Shown here piece by piece: positions 10,690 to 63,520 of a DNA stretch of 64,000 nucleotides (within the stretch, counting starts at the first letter, position 1; each line of letters begins with the position of its first letter). The notes beneath the pieces are model-generated. The model did no database searches, was not told the origin of the DNA, and saw nothing but the letters and a program-made list of their open reading frames with translations. The DNA comes from an uncultured Pseudomonadota bacterium (GTDB lineage: Bacteria; Pseudomonadota; Alphaproteobacteria; Rs-D84). Location: the NCBI GenBank assembly GCA_902793005.1, contig CADBBQ010000002.1, positions 33,501 to 97,500 of the forward strand, written 5' to 3'. Both the position numbers and the translations under genes were made by a program.

Positions 10690-11535
10690 TTATTTTTTAT
10701 TAAATCCTGGGGCCTCTTTTGCTAATTTTTTATCAGCACTTTTGACTCTGCGTTCAAGTTTTTTTATATCTTCTGCCGGGGGCAAAATCTCTGGTTTGAT
10801 TCCGCGATTAGCCAGCATTCCACGAACAGCCATATTGTTTTGTATATGTTCGTTTGTTATTGGTCGTTCGCCATATAAATCACTAGCACGCACATTGTGG
10901 TTTGTCATTTCTGTGGCCAAATTTTTAGCAGCAATAACAACCGTCGGCATAAAATCTGCAAGAGGTCTGTATTCTGGCGAACCGTATTTACGTTTCATTT
11001 CCAATGTGTTTTTACCACCAAACAATGCCATATCGCCCTTTGAACGAATTCTGGCAAAACCAGCGTCATCCACACCGCGTTCATATATTAATTTTGATAA
11101 TTCTGTTTCTGATGCAGTTAATTTAGCCCTAGCCTCCATACGTTCTGCCAAGGCAAGCCGTTCTTCAAGCACTTCTTGTTTGCGGGTTTGGATTGCAAAA
11201 TACGTTTGCGCAAAGGCAATTTCTTCTTTCCTGGGGTCTCCGTTTTGAGCAATTAAATAACAAGCATAACGAGTCAAAACAACATCTTCTATTGCTCTTT
11301 CAGAACCAGAACCTAACTTGACCATTTTGCTGACGTCAGCAAAATGGTTTTCCACTTGGATGCCGCTGTTTTGGCAAGATAATTTTGCTTTTTCTATAAT
11401 CTCATAAAAATTACGCCATTGAACGTATCCTAATAATATTTGCAATTCACGCGCAGACCAGCATTCAACACCTTGGTATTCAAATGCCGCGTCTTCAAAT
11501 TTTTTGTTTAAAAAGCTTACCAAACTTCTATCCAT
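10690..11535 (-). CDS. DNA-damage-inducible protein D (DinD)-like, with a KilA-N/Bro-N-type N-terminus
   Basis: The sequence pattern WSARELQ..LGY..W..F, the central coiled region and the C-terminal ...RGIKPE resemble the DinD family. Confidence 0.75.
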   Translation of the reverse strand: MDRSLVSFLNKKFEDAAFEYQGVECWSARELQILLGYVQWRNFYEIIEKAKLSCQNSGIQVENHFADVSKMVKLGSGSERAIEDVVLTRYACYLIAQNGDPRKEEIAFAQTYFAIQTRKQEVLEERLALAERMEARAKLTASETELSKLIYERGVDDAGFARIRSKGDMALFGGKNTLEMKRKYGSPEYRPLADFMPTVVIAAKNLATEMTNHNVRASDLYGERPITNEHIQNNMAVRGMLANRGIKPEILPPAEDIKKLERRVKSADKKLAKEAPGFNKK

Positions 11536-12222: not shown

Positions 12223-12498
12223 TTATTCATCGTATTCTGCATAAGGTGAACCTATGGCGCGTTCTTTGCCATAAAACACTTCTAATGCTTTAACATGCGC
12301 CTCTGTTATAAGTGCTTTTAATCCTAAAATATCCAACACAACCGCTGGAATAAAGATTAGTAGACCAAAAGTATATTGGGCATAATCATAACCGGCTGTA
12401 GTTACTAAAAATCCAGCCAAAGCGCCTATAAAAAAGGAAATAATAAACCACACATACCACTGTATTGGTTCCGTAATATTATTTTGTCTTTTTGCCAT
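12223..12498 (-). CDS. Small membrane protein with two TM segments (91 aa)
   Basis: The ATG at 12498 follows GGAGGA. The upstream extension of the track ORF would run through a terminator hairpin. Confidence 0.6.
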   Translation of the reverse strand: MAKRQNNITEPIQWYVWFIISFFIGALAGFLVTTAGYDYAQYTFGLLIFIPAVVLDILGLKALITEAHVKALEVFYGKERAIGSPYAEYDE

Positions 12499-12519
12499 GT
12501 TTTCCTCCATTCGTTCAAC

Positions 12520-12712
12520 ACAAAAACAAAAAACGCTCGTTGAAAAGCGAGCGGTTGGAGGTTCAGAACTATTGTAAGGTATAGTGTGTTTATTTTGCCA
12601 AAAAACGGCATTATTCACAGCCCTCCAACCACAATAGTTGGAGGATTTTACGTCCCCTCAGGACGCCTTACCCAGAGTTCTGACACTCAACAACGAAACA
12701 CCCGTTGTCGAT
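12520..12712 (-). ncRNA. Structured leader RNA, copy A: multi-helix junction, triple CUCCAACC/GGUUGGAG motif and an intrinsic terminator
   Basis: Long-range helices pair 12563-12570 with 12676-12683 and 12574-12579 with 12666-12671. Hairpins at 12622-12644 and 12651-12665. Terminator CGCUCG/CGAGCG plus a U-tract at 12520-12553. A paralogous architecture lies at 61299-61480. Confidence 0.55.
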
Positions 12713-12716
12713 TCCT

Positions 12717-12745
12717 ATTTTATCAAAAAAAATGATTATTTCCAA
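12717..12745 (-). promoter_or_regulatory. Sigma70-like promoter for leader RNA A (TTGGAA-17-TAAAAT)
   Basis: Hexamers read on the minus strand at 12745-12740 and 12722-12717. Confidence 0.4.
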
Positions 12746-54102: not shown

Positions 54103-54749
54103 TGTTTGACGCAGAATGGTTTTGGGGGTTGGAGAAAACTTTGCGTGCGCAAGGTTTGGATTCTGATGATCAATCGTTTGATGAAATACGCGAAATGTTG
54201 GCGGCGCCAAAACGGTTGCCGCCTGAATCTTTTGCGGATGCGTGTGCGTATGTAATTTTGGCGGGTGGTTTTTCACAAAAGACTGCAAAGAAAATTCATA
54301 CTGTTATTTGTGAAGCGTTGCGTGCGGGGGCGGATGCGGACGCGTTGTTTCAAATTTTTCATAATAAAAATAAAATAAATGCTATTTATAAAATTTGGAA
54401 TAATCGACAAAGTATTTGTGATGATTTTTATGCGTGTAATGGCGATTTAGAAAAAATAAATTATTTGCAAAAATTGCCACACATTGGAAAGATTACTGCA
54501 AATCATTTGGCGCGAAATCTGGGGTGCAATGTTGTGAAATATGATGTTTGGATTCAAAGATTAGGCGTGCTGTATGCAGGAAATCCGGCGTTTTTTGCGT
54601 TGGTTGATAATAAAAAATTAAATCCACAGATTAAAAAATATTGTGATGCGATGTTTGCGCAATTGGAACAAGAAACAAATTTGCCACGCGGATATATTGA
54701 TGTTGTGTTGTTTCGTGCGGCACAAAATCATTTGATAGAAGGTTTATAA
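54102..54749 (+). CDS. HhH-motif protein, possibly DNA glycosylase-like
   Basis: LPHIGKITANHLARNLG helix-hairpin-helix motif. The start overlaps the gyrB stop (TAATG). Lies directly upstream of ung. Confidence 0.5.
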
Positions 54750-59063: not shown

Positions 59064-59131
59064 ATAAATATCAGTTGACAATTTTTATTTTTGGTGTATA
59101 TTAGGTTGGAAATTGTCAAATGGAGGTTTTT

Positions 59132-60883
59132 ATGCTGAACGAAACAGAACGCAAAGAAATTTTGACTATGTTGAAAAAATATGAATACGCCCACGATTGG
59201 CTGTCGGGCCATTATGGTTCGCGTCGTGCGCATATCGTTTGTGATAAATGTTATAATTTGGCGGGGCGGTATCTGCGTAAAATGAAAGATAATATGGACG
59301 CGATTTCTTCGTCGGATGTTAAATATTTTGCGTTAATCGTTGATACATTTGAACCAATGCGCAAAAACAGTTTGTTTGCCGAATTGCAAAAACACGCAGA
59401 TTTCGATGTTGTTGCGTTTGTCGATGGTTGCAATCGTGTTGGTGCTAAACGGATGTTGAAAAATAAAACGGACAGTGTTGTTGAAAAACGCGTCAAAGAT
59501 ATGGAAAAATCACGCGAAAAATACAAGTCTTTGTGTGAAAATATTTCCAAAGGCAATGGCATTGTTCGTAATTCCAGATTGGCCGAAAAATACAGACATG
59601 ATGCGTATGCATATGCACGCGCAATTGTTAAGGATGAAGTTTTGGTGTCTGATGAAAATTTGGATGCAACATATCATTATTTGAAAACAATTTGTTTCCC
59701 GTATGTTGATGGTGATGTTGCCGATTTGGCCAAGAAAAAGTTAGAAGACAGAATTAAAAACAAGTCAGATTTGGTGGATGTGAAAAAAACAGATAAAAAA
59801 GAAAAATCTGAGGTTCGCGGTTTCAAATTGGGATTGGGTGCAATGAAACAAAAATTTGCGGCACGTGCGAAATCTGTGTTTGATTCTGTTGTGGAAAATC
59901 GCAATAAAAAATCAGATGCGGATAAAAAATGGGACGAATTGGCCGCACAACAACACAAAGCACAACGCGATTTTGAACGCAGTTATAAAAAGCAAGAACG
60001 CGATCAGAAAAAACAAGAACGCGTCGAAAATCGCAAACAGAAAAAACAAAAAATTGTTAATTCGGTGTTAAATGGATATGGTGTTGTGGTAATCGGTCTG
60101 CAAAATTTACAAGACGAATTTAACAAAAAACGGGATGCGCGTCGTGCACAAAGATTGGCGCGTGAAACCGCAGAACAAAAACGCAAATCGGATGAAACCA
60201 AAACACAGCCAAAATTAAATGGAAAACATTGGTATCGTAATGTTATTCGCGTTGCGGTGCCGGTTGTTGGTTTGTTGGCAATTGGTTTGGGATTAAATGC
60301 GTTGAATGATAATATGGATAAAAAACAGCAAGCGCAGAAAAAAGAAGTCAAAGAAGTAAAAGCTGTTAAACAGACGCCTGTGGTTGTGAAAAATGATGCA
60401 AACAAAACAACCCAATCGTATGCGGCACCGATTGCGTATGACACGGCGTATATGACGGCGATGAATAACTATTGCAATTCGGCAATGGATGTTATTGCGG
60501 GCGAAAAACGCAAAAATGATGTTATGACAAAATTAAATAACCAAATTCAAAATGGTAATTTAGTGTTAAATGACACAATCAGTGTTGAACGCGTCGCATA
60601 TACGTATTTCATTTATCGCGAATATGGGTTTAATATCGATGTGTTGAATTTGGCCGTAAACGGTAATGAAAAATTGTCTGATGCACAACAGGCAGAATTG
60701 GTCAAGGTTATTCAAGATGCCGGTGAACGGGGCCGGGGTGTCCAAAAAATGGCGCGTGAACGTGTGGAATCGCGTGGTGGCAATTTAGGACATCACAGCA
60801 AATTTGAACACGCTACAAAAAAACAACAGCGTGCACTTTTGGTTAATCGCGGTGTGTTGAAAAAAGTGCAACACAACAGATAA
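59132..60883 (+). CDS. Large Lys/Glu-rich hypothetical protein with a single central TM segment
   Basis: ATG at 59132 after GGAGG. Highly charged K/E/R tract (KKQERDQKKQERVENRKQKKQK) and TM segment VAVPVVGLLAIGLGL. Confidence 0.6.
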   Translation: MLNETERKEILTMLKKYEYAHDWLSGHYGSRRAHIVCDKCYNLAGRYLRKMKDNMDAISSSDVKYFALIVDTFEPMRKNSLFAELQKHADFDVVAFVDGCNRVGAKRMLKNKTDSVVEKRVKDMEKSREKYKSLCENISKGNGIVRNSRLAEKYRHDAYAYARAIVKDEVLVSDENLDATYHYLKTICFPYVDGDVADLAKKKLEDRIKNKSDLVDVKKTDKKEKSEVRGFKLGLGAMKQKFAARAKSVFDSVVENRNKKSDADKKWDELAAQQHKAQRDFERSYKKQERDQKKQERVENRKQKKQKIVNSVLNGYGVVVIGLQNLQDEFNKKRDARRAQRLARETAEQKRKSDETKTQPKLNGKHWYRNVIRVAVPVVGLLAIGLGLNALNDNMDKKQQAQKKEVKEVKAVKQTPVVVKNDANKTTQSYAAPIAYDTAYMTAMNNYCNSAMDVIAGEKRKNDVMTKLNNQIQNGNLVLNDTISVERVAYTYFIYREYGFNIDVLNLAVNGNEKLSDAQQAELVKVIQDAGERGRGVQKMARERVESRGGNLGHHSKFEHATKKQQRALLVNRGVLKKVQHNR

Positions 60884-60884
60884 T

Positions 60885-60916
60885 AAAAAAGGTTGGTTTA
60901 AACGCCAACCTTTTTT
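60885..60916. terminator. Bidirectional intrinsic terminator (GGTTGG/CCAACC)
   Basis: Stem flanked by A6 and T6, between convergent ORFs. Confidence 0.7.
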
Positions 60917-61278
60917 ATAACTTTGTGTTCGTGTACAAATTCATAAACATTTTTTACGGCGATTGCGTTTATTGTATCCAAGTCATTAAAAATTGTTTTG
61001 CTTTTGATTTTTTGTTTTTTTTCGGCGACGACGGTTATGATAAGCATATTTAATTGAAATGGAAATTCGTCTGTCATTTCACGCAGTTTGAACGGATAAA
61101 ATATTAAAAATTTTTTTATAATTTCATCACGCATTTTATCAAATCGTGTTGCCGCAGATGCGTTTGGAATTTGTGCGCGAATTTCGGATAAATGTTTATT
61201 CATTATTTTTAATGGTTCTTGGTTTGCGGGGTCGGTAATTGTGTCGCCTTGGTAAAATATTTTTGGTAAACGTCGCAT
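60898..61278 (-). CDS. Hypothetical protein (126 aa) downstream of leader RNA B
   Basis: ORF with its ATG at 61278, about 20 nt after the leader terminator U-tract. No family recognised. Confidence 0.55.
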   Translation of the reverse strand: MRRLPKIFYQGDTITDPANQEPLKIMNKHLSEIRAQIPNASAATRFDKMRDEIIKKFLIFYPFKLREMTDEFPFQLNMLIITVVAEKKQKIKSKTIFNDLDTINAIAVKNVYEFVHEHKVIKKVGV

Positions 61279-61298
61279 AGTTGTACTCTTGGTTTTTA

Positions 61299-61480
61299 GA
61301 AAAATAAAAAACCACTATGAAAAACATAAGTGGTTGGAGTTTTACATCTATGTCAAACGAAATAGCGTGCTTATTCAAATATATCACACACTCCAACCGA
61401 GGTTGGAGTGTTTTCAGTCCCTCCGGACTCGTTTGACGTGGAGTGTAAATCTCCAGCCCGGGAACTCCCCGTGCATAAGT
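61299..61480 (-). ncRNA. Structured leader RNA, copy B; same architecture as 12520-12712
   Basis: Helices pair 61336-61346 with 61444-61454 and 61452-61460 with 61429-61437. Hairpins at 61391-61408 and 61416-61429. Terminator CCACUUAUG/CAUAGUGG plus a U-tract at 61299-61332. Confidence 0.55.
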
Positions 61481-61741
61481 ATGCTATATTAATAAACATA
61501 AAAAATCAAGTGGGTTGTAATTTATCTTGCAAATGGGGATTTTTGATTATATCATAAATACATATTTTAAGGGCGCGATACCGATGAAGTGACTGACAAC
61601 CACGGAGGCATCAAAACCCAAAAACAAAAGTGATAAATTCGGGTGGCACCGCGCGGAAACTTCGCGCCCCGAAAATGAAAATTGTGGGTGCCAAAAATTT
61701 CATATTTTGTTGGTGCCCTGAGAATATAAAGGGTGTAAAAA

Positions 61742-63520
61742 ATGTTATCTTTGAAATCAAAATACAGAACGCATACTTGCGGTGAATTAAACATCAGTAA
61801 TGTTGGCGAAACTGTGACTTTGGCCGGGTGGGTGCATCGTAAACGCGACCACGGGTCTTTGTTGTTTGTGGATTTGCGCGATAATTATGGTATTACGCAA
61901 TGCGTGTTTGACGGGGGCGATGAAGTGTTGGAACGCATTCGTCCGGAATCTGTGGTGCAAATTACTGGCAAAGTTGTTGCGCGTGATTTGGATGCAATTA
62001 ATGAAAAAATCCCAACCGGACATATCGAAATCCAGGCAAAGGCGGCGGACGTTAAAATTTTAACAAATGCCGAGGTTTTGCCTTTCCAGGTGTTTGGCGA
62101 TGAAGAAACATCCGAAGAATTGCGGTATAAATATCGGTTCTTGGATTTGCGCCGTGAACGGTTGCACTATAATATTTTGATGCGCAATAAAATGATGAAG
62201 TGGTTAAGGGACAAAATGTGGGATTTGGGTTTTTCGGAATTCCAAACACCGCTGTTGACCGCGGATTCGCCCGAGGGCGCACGCAGTTTCTTGGTGCCGT
62301 CGCGTCTGCATCACGGTAAATTTTATGCGTTGCCCCAGGCACCACAGATGTTTAAACAATTATTACAGGTGTCTGGATTTGACCGGTATTTCCAAATTGC
62401 GCCGTGTTTCAGAGATGAAGATTTGCGCGCCGACAGATTGTTGGAATTTTATCAGTTGGATATGGAAATGTCTTTTGTTGATGTCCCAGATATCCAGGCC
62501 GTTGGCGAGGCAATTATGCCGGAATTGGTTAAAACTTTTGCGCCGGACGCCAATGTGTATCCAACAATTCCACATATTTCGTATGATGACGCAATGTTGA
62601 AATATGGTTGCGATAAACCGGATTTGCGTAATCCTATTTTAATTTCGGATGTGACGGAAATTTTCCGTGGGTCTGAATTTGGAATCTTTGCAAATGCGAT
62701 TGAATCGGGTGCGGTGGTGCGTGCGGTGCCGGCGCCAAAAACGGCCGATAAACCGCGTTCTTGGTTTGATAAATTGGGCGAATATGCAACCCGCGAATTG
62801 GGGTTGGGGGGATTAGGCTATATCATTTTTGCCGATGAAGCCAAGGGCCCGGTTGCCAAAAAATTGGATGCGGCGCGCATTGCAAAATTGAAAGACATTG
62901 CGGGCGATAATGCGTCTATATTCTTTATTTGTGATACGGTGGATAATGCGGCACGTGCCGCGGGCAAATTGCGTAATAAATTGGGTGCAGATTTGGGATT
63001 GGTCAATCCGCGTGATTTTGCATTTTGCTGGGTCGATAATTTCCCGTTCTTTGAACCGGATGAAGACCGTGGTGGTGCGCCGAAATTTACGCATAATCCG
63101 TTTTCGTATCCGATTATTGATTCGGTTGAAGAATTATCAACGCGCGACCCATTTTCTATCAAGGCGGCACAATTCGATATGGTGTTGAACGGTATCGAAA
63201 TTTGCAGTGGTGGATTGCGCAACTATAACCCGGATGTGATGAAAAAATGTTTTGAAATCGCCGGTTATCCATTAGAGGCCGTCGAGAAAAACTTTTCTGG
63301 ATTATACACTGCGTTTCAATATGGTGCGCCACCACACGGCGGTTGTGCGTTCGGTATTGAACGCGTGGTGTCGGAAATTTTGGGCATCGGCGACAGTGTT
63401 CGTGAAATCGTTGCGTTCCCGGCAAATCAACGCGGTCAAGATTTGTTGATGGGCAGCCCTAACGAGGTTTCCGAACAACAATTGCGTGATGTGCATATTC
63501 AAATCCGCAAGAAAAATTAA
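61742..63520 (+). CDS. aspS: Aspartyl-tRNA synthetase (bacterial type)
   Basis: Class II motifs FQIAPCFRDEDLRADR and GGCAFGIERV, with a GAD insertion domain. Confidence 0.95.
   Translation: MLSLKSKYRTHTCGELNISNVGETVTLAGWVHRKRDHGSLLFVDLRDNYGITQCVFDGGDEVLERIRPESVVQITGKVVARDLDAINEKIPTGHIEIQAKAADVKILTNAEVLPFQVFGDEETSEELRYKYRFLDLRRERLHYNILMRNKMMKWLRDKMWDLGFSEFQTPLLTADSPEGARSFLVPSRLHHGKFYALPQAPQMFKQLLQVSGFDRYFQIAPCFRDEDLRADRLLEFYQLDMEMSFVDVPDIQAVGEAIMPELVKTFAPDANVYPTIPHISYDDAMLKYGCDKPDLRNPILISDVTEIFRGSEFGIFANAIESGAVVRAVPAPKTADKPRSWFDKLGEYATRELGLGGLGYIIFADEAKGPVAKKLDAARIAKLKDIAGDNASIFFICDTVDNAARAAGKLRNKLGADLGLVNPRDFAFCWVDNFPFFEPDEDRGGAPKFTHNPFSYPIIDSVEELSTRDPFSIKAAQFDMVLNGIEICSGGLRNYNPDVMKKCFEIAGYPLEAVEKNFSGLYTAFQYGAPPHGGCAFGIERVVSEILGIGDSVREIVAFPANQRGQDLLMGSPNEVSEQQLRDVHIQIRKKN

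Follow-up and report, generated by a model that had tools for sequence, protein, structure and literature searches.

A multi-copy leader RNA of Rs-D84/Enterousia Alphaproteobacteria with two covarying folds and a candidate terminator/antiterminator switch

What controls the genes that stand behind a repeated, structured RNA element in an uncultured alphaproteobacterium of the lineage Rs-D84? The window, meaning the whole stretch of 64,000 nucleotides analysed here (assembly GCA_902793005.1, contig CADBBQ010000002.1, positions 33,501 to 97,500), carries two copies of such an element, A and B. A sequence-only reading had proposed that copy B is a structured leader RNA upstream of an open reading frame (ORF) of 126 amino acids (aa). 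We describe copy B as a unit occupying 61300-61509 of the minus strand and consider, at a probability of roughly 0.62, that it is a self-contained transcription unit which controls read-through by two mutually exclusive folds. All evidence on this leader family is computational. Judged from the alignments, both folds are independently supported by covariation, with compensatory changes in seven helices, and the family comprises more than 200 instances in metagenome-assembled genomes (MAGs) of gut and rumen Alphaproteobacteria (Candidatus Enterousia, order Rs-D84).

Each unit runs from a sigma-70-like promoter through a hairpin, P0, a multi-helix domain and an intrinsic terminator to a co-oriented ORF. 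In copy B, all of whose parts lie on the minus strand, the promoter (61481..61509) was read directly as a -35 element TTGATT (61504-61509), a spacer of 17 nt and a -10 element TAGCAT (61481-61486), and the transcript would start near 61474. P0 (CGGG-GAGUU-CCCG, 61459..61471) forms the 5' end of the transcript in the minimum free energy (MFE) fold and is backed by covariation. It is followed by block a (GGAG, 61451-61454), the 5' strand of helix P1b (UUUACA, 61444-61449), block a' (CUCC, 61440-61443) and the 5' strand of helix P1c (GUCAAACGA, 61429..61437). Blocks a and a' can pair as a local hairpin, Pa (61440..61454), in whose loop the P1b strand sits. Hairpin P2 (AGUCC-GGAG-GGACU, 61416..61429), evident in the sequence and in the MFE fold, precedes block b ((A)CUCCAACC, 61401..61409), the 5' arm of hairpin P3, and block c (GGUUGGAG(U), 61390..61398), which may pair either with b in P3 or with a later block, d, in the antiterminator. 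Fold and conservation define P4 (61365..61389), a stem GUGUG/CACGC with a conserved A/U-rich loop AUAUAUUUGAAUAAG. In P5 (61348..61365), CUAU (61362-61365) pairs with AUAG (61348-61351) and encloses the 3' strand of P1c (UCGUUUGAC, 61352-61360). The 3' strand of P1b (UGUAAA, 61341..61346), recognized by covariation, leads to block d ((A)CUCCAACC, 61332..61340), the partner of c in the alternative fold, whose 3' nucleotides open the terminator stem. The intrinsic terminator (61300..61335) consists of a stem at 61311-61335 (AACCACU-U-AUG / CAU-AGUGGUU) and a U-tract reaching to about 61300; the latter ends approximately 22 nt ahead of the ATG at 61278, close to the 20 nt estimated earlier. The 126-aa ORF itself (60898..61278) is preceded by a weak Shine-Dalgarno (SD) sequence, AAGAG, at 61286-61290.

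The predicted fold of copy B reaches -66.5 kcal/mol, compared with -42.8 kcal/mol for shuffled sequences (z = -6.0). The word CTCCAACC occurs six times in the window against 0.96 expected, and the CTCCAAC-loop-GTTGGAG hairpin is found in the window solely at copies A and B, against 0 expected. We recovered the hairpin CUCCAACC-UC-GGUUGGAG at 61391-61408 and the third CUCCAACC at 61332-61339 with its terminator, as the sequence-only reading had placed them. The long-range helix that it drew between GGAGAUUUACA (61454-61444) and UGUAAAACUCC (61346-61336) holds at 10 of 11 pairs in the minus-strand reading, although its outer GGAG:CUCC part lacks covariation support of its own and the rival hairpin Pa is supported. 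The companion helix, P1c, forms nine of nine pairs with 61352-61360; the partner site 61452-61460 that had been given for it is a typing error. The hairpin at 61416-61429 likewise exists, but its CUCC loop had been taken from the plus strand, and the transcribed loop is GGAG. Conservation was said to be confined to the CUCCAACC/GGUUGGAG and GUCC/GGAC blocks. These are indeed conserved, but so are the P4 loop (GA...AAUA), the CUAU/AUAG pair and an A-rich linker between P2 and P3. The helices Pa and P5, the hairpin P0 and the promoter are additions of the present analysis.

Two data sets were assembled for the family. The first came from a degenerate pattern on blocks b, c and d, run over species-representative genomes, and yielded at least 120 stretches compared with about 4 expected by chance. 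These matches lie nearly all in gut, rumen and termite MAGs labelled Alphaproteobacteria, Candidatus Enterousia or Rickettsiales, on up to four contigs per MAG. The second was a metagenome scan anchored solely on the P4 loop and P5, without b, c and d, in which a covariance model confirmed about 90 among the first 100 loci. Covariation was read from a seed alignment (A3) and an unbiased alignment (A6), and the model used for scoring, R1, treated d as unpaired. Mean column identity in the 45-sequence seed is 45%. Since G.U cells outnumber A.C cells (247 vs 53), the structure belongs to the sense-strand RNA.

The first of the two folds, here called nested, consists of P1b, P1c, P2, P3 (b:c) and P4 and leaves the terminator free. 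It is the MFE structure of copies A and B and of 120/127 truncated leaders. The suggestion that the enclosing helices keep their pairing despite sequence change proved well founded, as covariation is strong in P0, P1b and P1c. Compensatory changes occur at all 8 pairs of P0, which is 95% paired on A6, and at 7/7 pairs of P1b. For P1c, cognate strands form a duplex of -8.6 kcal/mol compared with -3.1 kcal/mol for non-cognate ones, and 108/129 instances beat 95% of the non-cognates. The b:c pairing is present at 88.7-93.8% (88.7% on the unbiased alignment) and includes many G.U pairs. The P4 duplex also favours cognate strands (-7.0 vs -5.2 kcal/mol), and all sequences of the 45-sequence seed, selected with no regard to this loop, have the loop ends GA...AAUA. 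In contrast to these cognate preferences, the a:d pairing that makes up the outer part of the first long-range helix shows no cognate advantage, because d hardly varies.

In the alternative fold, c pairs with d and encloses P4 and P5 as a three-way junction, with hairpin Pa on its 5' side. The c:d helix is 99.3% paired on A3 and 96.1% on A6, with compensatory changes at 5/9 pairs. Its ninth pair, whose d side was not fixed by the search pattern, is G-C in 32, U-A in 4 and U-G in 4 cases, copy B having U-A. In 80/96 cases c:d has more Watson-Crick pairs than b:c. Moreover, b, c and d have changed together in 19 leaders, where d reads CUCCUGACC, CUCCUGCC or CUCCUGGCC, accompanied by GGUCAGGAGG or GGCAGGAGG; a natural variant set pairs CUCCUGACC with GGUCAGGAG, and standard and variant versions of d coexist on one contig. 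The antiterminator role suggested earlier for the distal CUCCAACC is in line with this result: the block pairs with GGUUGGAG with compensatory changes and forms part of the terminator stem. For P5 the paired fraction is 96-99%, and A-U (43) and U-A (43) are equally frequent at its second pair, that is, CUAU/AUAG vs CAAU/AUUG, a switch found even within the ortholog set of copy B. In Pa, an A in block a faces U in a' in 32/32 cases and never C. Stepwise folding shows Pa forming early, and forcing c:d in silico causes both Pa and P5 to appear.

The 3' strands of P1c and P5 overlap by 1-4 nt in 107/124 units. The nested and alternative folds cannot coexist, because c has two partners and the P1c and P5 3' strands overlap. 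From pseudoknot geometry, P1b and c:d should be mutually exclusive as well, since the one-nucleotide linker between the P1b 3' strand and d cannot span P1b.

We next consider how these folds relate to termination. In 92/108 parsed units, d gives 3-4 nt (ACC or AACC) to the terminator stem. The overlap of 2 nt claimed for copy B is therefore too small: with a predicted stem from A61335 it is 4 nt. Blocking d weakens the terminator from a median of -9.6 kcal/mol to one of -2.7 kcal/mol, and in most cases what is left of the stem stops 3-5 nt short of the U-tract. Because d supplies nucleotides of the terminator stem, c:d is a predicted antiterminator. The energy balance is on the side of the nested fold, with a median advantage of 8.7 kcal/mol; the computed gap is 9.6 kcal/mol when the temperature is set to 15 °C, 8.4 for 37 °C, 8.1 for 42 °C and still 4.5 for 70 °C. 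The nested helices can also form in the order of synthesis. The default would be termination, because the nested fold is far more stable and is formed first. In the mechanism that we propose, pairing of P1b and P1c would hold c on b and leave d free, so that its ACC/AACC could enter the terminator stem and stop transcription (OFF). If c:d formed instead, the base of the terminator stem would be removed and the polymerase could read through. A trans-acting factor binding the emerging P4-P5/c:d junction would thus turn the gene ON. Both the direction of switching and the existence and nature of an effector are what we infer; read-through would depend on some influence, whether protein, ligand or kinetic, that tips the emerging RNA towards P5/P4 and c:d.

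The arrangement of units across the family is that of a cis-acting leader. A same-strand ORF, or another unit, follows in 135/139 pattern matches, with the ORF start at a median of 48 nt past d. In the set found without b, c and d, 77 of the 90 assessable units precede an ORF, 9 another unit and 4 neither. A U-tract is present in 136/139 units. A stringent sigma-70 match was found in 70/129 units compared with 15/339 control windows (twelve-fold), and in 52/70 of the promoter-bearing units the -10 element ends 70-79 nt upstream of b. The leader is roughly 175 nt long. The family shows its own promoter, a covarying structure, a terminator with a close co-oriented ORF and a helix that shares terminator stem nucleotides, four of the features that mark a terminator/antiterminator leader. 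The shared regulon proposed from two copies has grown to more than 200 instances ahead of diverse genes.

The family appears in no resource that we searched. Rfam 15, run at gathering and permissive thresholds over the window, both copies and the array locus L160 (described below), returned only noise-level matches over the element, and we found no description of such a leader family in the literature on Enterousia, Rs-D84 and riboswitch candidates. We conclude that it is a new family within a known mechanism. A model search with filters off detected no window copies beyond A and B, and the plus-strand model matches at these copies are palindrome echoes. Viral contigs scanned with the b, c and d pattern gave zero matches. 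One match, L033, lies in a bin named Bacteroides fragilis (CAVGNU010000003.1), with a leader and gene close to those of L022, a Pseudomonadota MAG; it probably represents a mis-binned contig and not a true occurrence outside Alphaproteobacteria.

Some loci depart from the simple order of leader and gene. L156 (120-1000, plus strand) has four complete promoter-leader-terminator units in tandem ahead of one small gene, and L215 (1650-2090, minus strand) has two tandem units with no ORF before a convergent terminator. L160 (OFFG01023649.1, 165-560, plus strand) begins with a promoter followed by five tandem c-P4-P5-d half-modules, without the 5' half or an ORF. Each c in this array matches its own d, and each CCAACC block can in addition form a hairpin with the c of the unit after it. 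Beyond the array lie two complete leaders and then an XRE-type helix-turn-helix (HTH) gene. The array may be a decoy RNA or a multi-domain RNA. A scan for core-only modules gave no clear case besides L160.

Several points weigh against a two-fold switch in cis. The search pattern itself made c and d invariant in the first data set, a bias from which the second set and the model-only matches are free, and the copies are related, so the covariation cell counts exceed the number of independent events. Copy A and its orthologs have only 1 nt of d in the terminator stem, which makes c:d antitermination weak there. Given the gap of 8.7 kcal/mol, the alternative fold may rarely be populated without a factor, and no factor was identified. 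So few conserved unpaired nucleotides as the three-way junction has would be unusual in a ligand pocket, and tandem or ORF-less units such as L156 and L215 also fit autonomous small RNAs (sRNAs). As to the factor, we lean slightly towards an RNA-binding protein over a small-molecule ligand, because the A/U-rich P4 loop is the only strongly conserved unpaired region, because the three-way junction is nearly devoid of conserved junction nucleotides, and because the L160 half-module array resembles a decoy.

How far do other explanations account for the same data? A metabolite or second-messenger riboswitch, whose ligand would bind the three-way junction of c:d, P4 and P5 as an ON switch or the four-way junction of the nested fold as an OFF switch, is a tentative possibility that we take seriously. 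The complex, conserved multi-helix domain with an expression platform speaks for it, as does the presence of more than one copy per genome ahead of unrelated genes, and a tightly bound ligand could make up for a gap of 8-9 kcal/mol. The regulons of cyclic di-GMP (c-di-GMP) riboswitches resemble this set of surface or secreted proteins and regulators. However, the downstream genes give no metabolic or transport clue, the conserved unpaired positions belong mainly to an A/U-rich hairpin loop and not to a purine-rich junction, and some members do without P2. A ligand sensor would also be hard to reconcile with the L160 array, whose five aptamer-like half-modules lack an expression platform. A temperature-driven shift from the A-U-rich P1b and P1c to the G-C-rich c:d would agree with the composition of these helices, and host-associated bacteria often control surface proteins by temperature. 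Nevertheless, the computed gap barely moves from 15 to 42 °C, and a pure RNA thermometer, rejected on this near-flat energy difference between the folds, is very improbable.

The autonomy of the units could alternatively point to trans-acting sRNAs of about 175 nt, in which the CCUCC-containing a', b and d serve as anti-SD seeds or titrate a protein while expression of the ORF is incidental. Every unit has its own promoter and terminator, tandem units and units without a following ORF exist, the L160 half-module array is promoter-driven, and d is placed immediately 5' of the terminator, where seeds are typically found. Alphaproteobacteria are known to have multi-copy sRNAs that carry anti-SD motifs. 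We nevertheless consider a mainly trans-acting role unlikely, with the tandem units leaving room for a minor one. In about 86-97% of units a co-oriented start codon follows at a fixed distance (median 48 nt), too close for a promoter of its own to fit in between. The CUCC blocks are paired in one fold or the other and covary with their intramolecular partners, and standard and variant d occur on one contig. Outside the two leaders, gene-sense GGTTGGAG is present at one window site (54127-54134), about 25 nt into a coding region and not at a ribosome-binding site. Multi-copy occurrence, internally repeated 8-mers and tandem arrays would also be expected of a dispersed repeat, whether a miniature inverted-repeat transposable element (MITE), a repetitive extragenic palindrome (REP) or an integron attC-like site, or of a mobile promoter cassette without switching. 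CTCCAAC and GTTGGAG each match what we take to be the integron core-site consensus at 6/7 positions. We give this explanation almost no credence: orientation and distance relative to ORFs are fixed, the copies diverge widely while compensatory changes keep seven helices paired, the excess of G.U cells is specific to one strand, and viral contigs gave no matches. In addition, the element lies 5' of genes with a promoter and a terminator and not 3' of cassettes; position, orientation and strand-specific covariation rule out the MITE and integron attC readings. The sequence-only reading had itself named failing helices or a repeat dispersed on both strands as grounds for abandoning the leader, and what we found is that folding and covariation back the helices and that the element is not such a repeat. 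The preferred reading is thus still a cis-acting leader with two exclusive folds.

Comparison with known systems places this leader more precisely. In the pbuE/ydhL adenine riboswitch, the 3' strand of the junction-closing helix otherwise starts the terminator stem, and a stabilised junction gives read-through. The three-way junction and terminator layout of the leader family are closest to such ON-type purine riboswitches. In contrast to them, the family has no Rfam model or sequence similarity, no conserved junction core or loop-loop kiss was seen, and the junction is actively taken apart by a 5' half (Pa, P1b, P1c, P2, b) that these riboswitches do not have. T-box leaders are multi-copy and sometimes tandem, with competing terminator and antiterminator helices between which a trans-acting macromolecule decides. 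The leader family resembles them in having more than one copy per genome and in occurring in tandem, but it has neither a specifier loop nor a T-box sequence, its downstream genes are not aminoacyl-tRNA or amino-acid genes, and the T-box model RF00230 gave no minus-strand match at E <= 10 over the element, its one match lying on the plus strand at 61488-61674. In ANTAR regulation (EutV with the EutX/Rli55 decoy), a protein captures two adjacent hairpins, and a noncoding RNA with the same modules serves as the decoy. By analogy, P4 and P5 just upstream of the terminator could be captured by a protein, and the L160 array would be decoy-like. ANTAR substrates are two short tandem hairpins with hexaloops, the second of which overlaps the terminator, whereas the P4 loop of the leader has 15-16 nt or an inserted hairpin and the P5 loop is variable (5-14 nt). 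Moreover, no ANTAR protein was identified, and only one decoy-like array was seen.

The c-di-GMP riboswitches (GEMM-I, GEMM-II) are similar to the family in being multi-copy and in preceding surface, secreted and regulatory genes of otherwise unknown function, but the leader does not match the GEMM-I/II models and has another architecture. The alphaproteobacterial cuckoo/alpha-r14, AbcR and NfeR1 sRNAs are multi-copy RNAs of about 150-200 nt with several CCUCC-type motifs and their own promoter and terminator. The leader differs in that its CUCC blocks pair intramolecularly and covary, its units lead co-oriented ORFs, and it has no Rfam match. The Rfam models for the PyrR site, the alpha-r sRNAs and c-di-GMP-I/II gave no significant match over the element. 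The leader family is accordingly neither a T-box, nor an ANTAR target, nor a member of a known Rfam family.

Copy A is a complete second unit at 12528..12745 on the minus strand, defined by model R1 and by folding. Its promoter was read directly (-35 TTGGAA, 12740-12745; -10 TAAAAT, 12717-12722), and it carries P0 at 12688-12710, blocks b, c and d at 12637-12644, 12622-12630 and 12553-12561, a terminator stem at 12534-12553 and a U-tract at 12528-12533. The fold of copy A (approximately 12528-12712) has z = -5.1 and the same multi-branch shape as copy B, and model R1 scores the two copies at 115.3 and 108.9 bits, respectively. The downstream ORF (12223..12498, minus strand; SD GGAGG at 12504-12508) encodes 91 aa with two hydrophobic segments. 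Its start was placed at ATG 12498, as homologs begin with MAKRQNN, whereas the mechanical ORF list had reached back to GTG 12618 inside the leader. Protein comparison bears out the statement that the genes behind the two copies are unrelated. Orthologs of the copy A gene also carry the leader, and in one lineage it stands ahead of a different first gene. The 126-aa protein behind copy B is a predicted helical bundle (AlphaFold model, pLDDT 81), and Pfam, NCBIfam and a PDB fold search gave nothing informative for it. Orthologs of its gene (64-92% identical) bear the same leader with many compensatory substitutions. In homologs P2 appears as GUCU/AGAC and GUCA/UGAC, and it is missing in some members, e.g., L009.

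The sequence-only reading had suggested comparing gene contexts across all matches for the sensed signal. Among 119 distinct downstream proteins, most have no Pfam family, and no metabolic theme pointing to a ligand was found. The largest recurring group consists of small XRE-type HTH proteins (HTH_31 in 9, HTH_3 in 4 and HTH_19 in 4), and Listeria-Bacteroides repeat proteins (6), an outer-membrane beta-barrel, a UvrD-type helicase and AAA proteins also occur. Two proteins start like restriction or nuclease-type enzymes by their N-terminal sequence; for one of them, all that NCBIfam gave were weak matches well under the cut-off, with a restriction-enzyme family and with the endonuclease NucS. 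By a rough heuristic, 69/119 have a signal- or membrane-type N-terminus, and 53/119 are at most 100 aa long. From these sequences, the regulon appears to consist mostly of secreted proteins and small regulators.

A further observation concerns the genes behind variant leaders. The motif (A/U)CAGGAG, complementary to d, lies in the SD region after CUCCUGACC leaders in L097, L105, L182, L198, L220 and L253. CAGGAG follows 6/17 variant leaders compared with 4/121 standard ones (p = 2e-4). The six leaders look orthologous, and UGGAG is not enriched after standard leaders. This pattern is suggestive only: d may also mask the ribosome-binding site, or the enrichment may reflect orthologous genes alone.

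The surroundings of the two copies hold other features. A T-box-like leader (61488-61674, plus strand) upstream of aspS (61742-63520) directly abuts the promoter of copy B. Its score is 33.4 bits, where the gathering threshold is 93, with E-values of 1e-5 locally and 1e-3 over the window. A GGGUGGCACCGCG box is present, the candidate specifier region contains a GAC (Asp) codon, and the leader is about 92% conserved in two related contigs. To our knowledge, T-boxes are unusual in Alphaproteobacteria, and this one may be a diverged or horizontally acquired variant. On the other side, the gene behind copy B faces a convergent ORF of 587 aa (59120-60883) that is rich in Lys and Glu and belongs to no family, and the two have a bidirectional terminator (60883-60918) in common. 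Bro-N domain proteins recur near leader-controlled genes (10690-11535 of the window, minus strand; L001, L006). Five tRNA genes lie in the window, at 1676, 10484, 41286, 58115 and 58955.

Enterousia belongs to the order Rs-D84. Bacteria of this lineage are uncultured, occur commonly in the guts of animals and humans, and possess genomes below 1 Mb, with a range of 0.75-1.0 Mb given for Enterousia (PMC12306168). Almost nothing is known about gene regulation in this group, and a single RNA module that precedes many secreted proteins and small HTH regulators, together with some nuclease- or helicase-like genes, would mark out a regulon and a signal worth seeking. Both conformations are visible by covariation, including the three-way change of b, c and d, which makes the family a clean natural system on which to test the design of bistable RNAs and the detection of alternative structures. 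A novel effector, be it a ligand or an RNA-binding antiterminator, would add a new regulatory class. As a speculation that we hold with clear reserve, a new class of riboswitch or protein-responsive antiterminator may be the main conditional gene-control device of Rs-D84/Enterousia; it would respond to a second messenger or to a signal from the host or community, control the surface and secreted proteome along with small XRE-type regulators, and be accompanied in some genomes by decoy RNAs made up of just the antiterminator domain.

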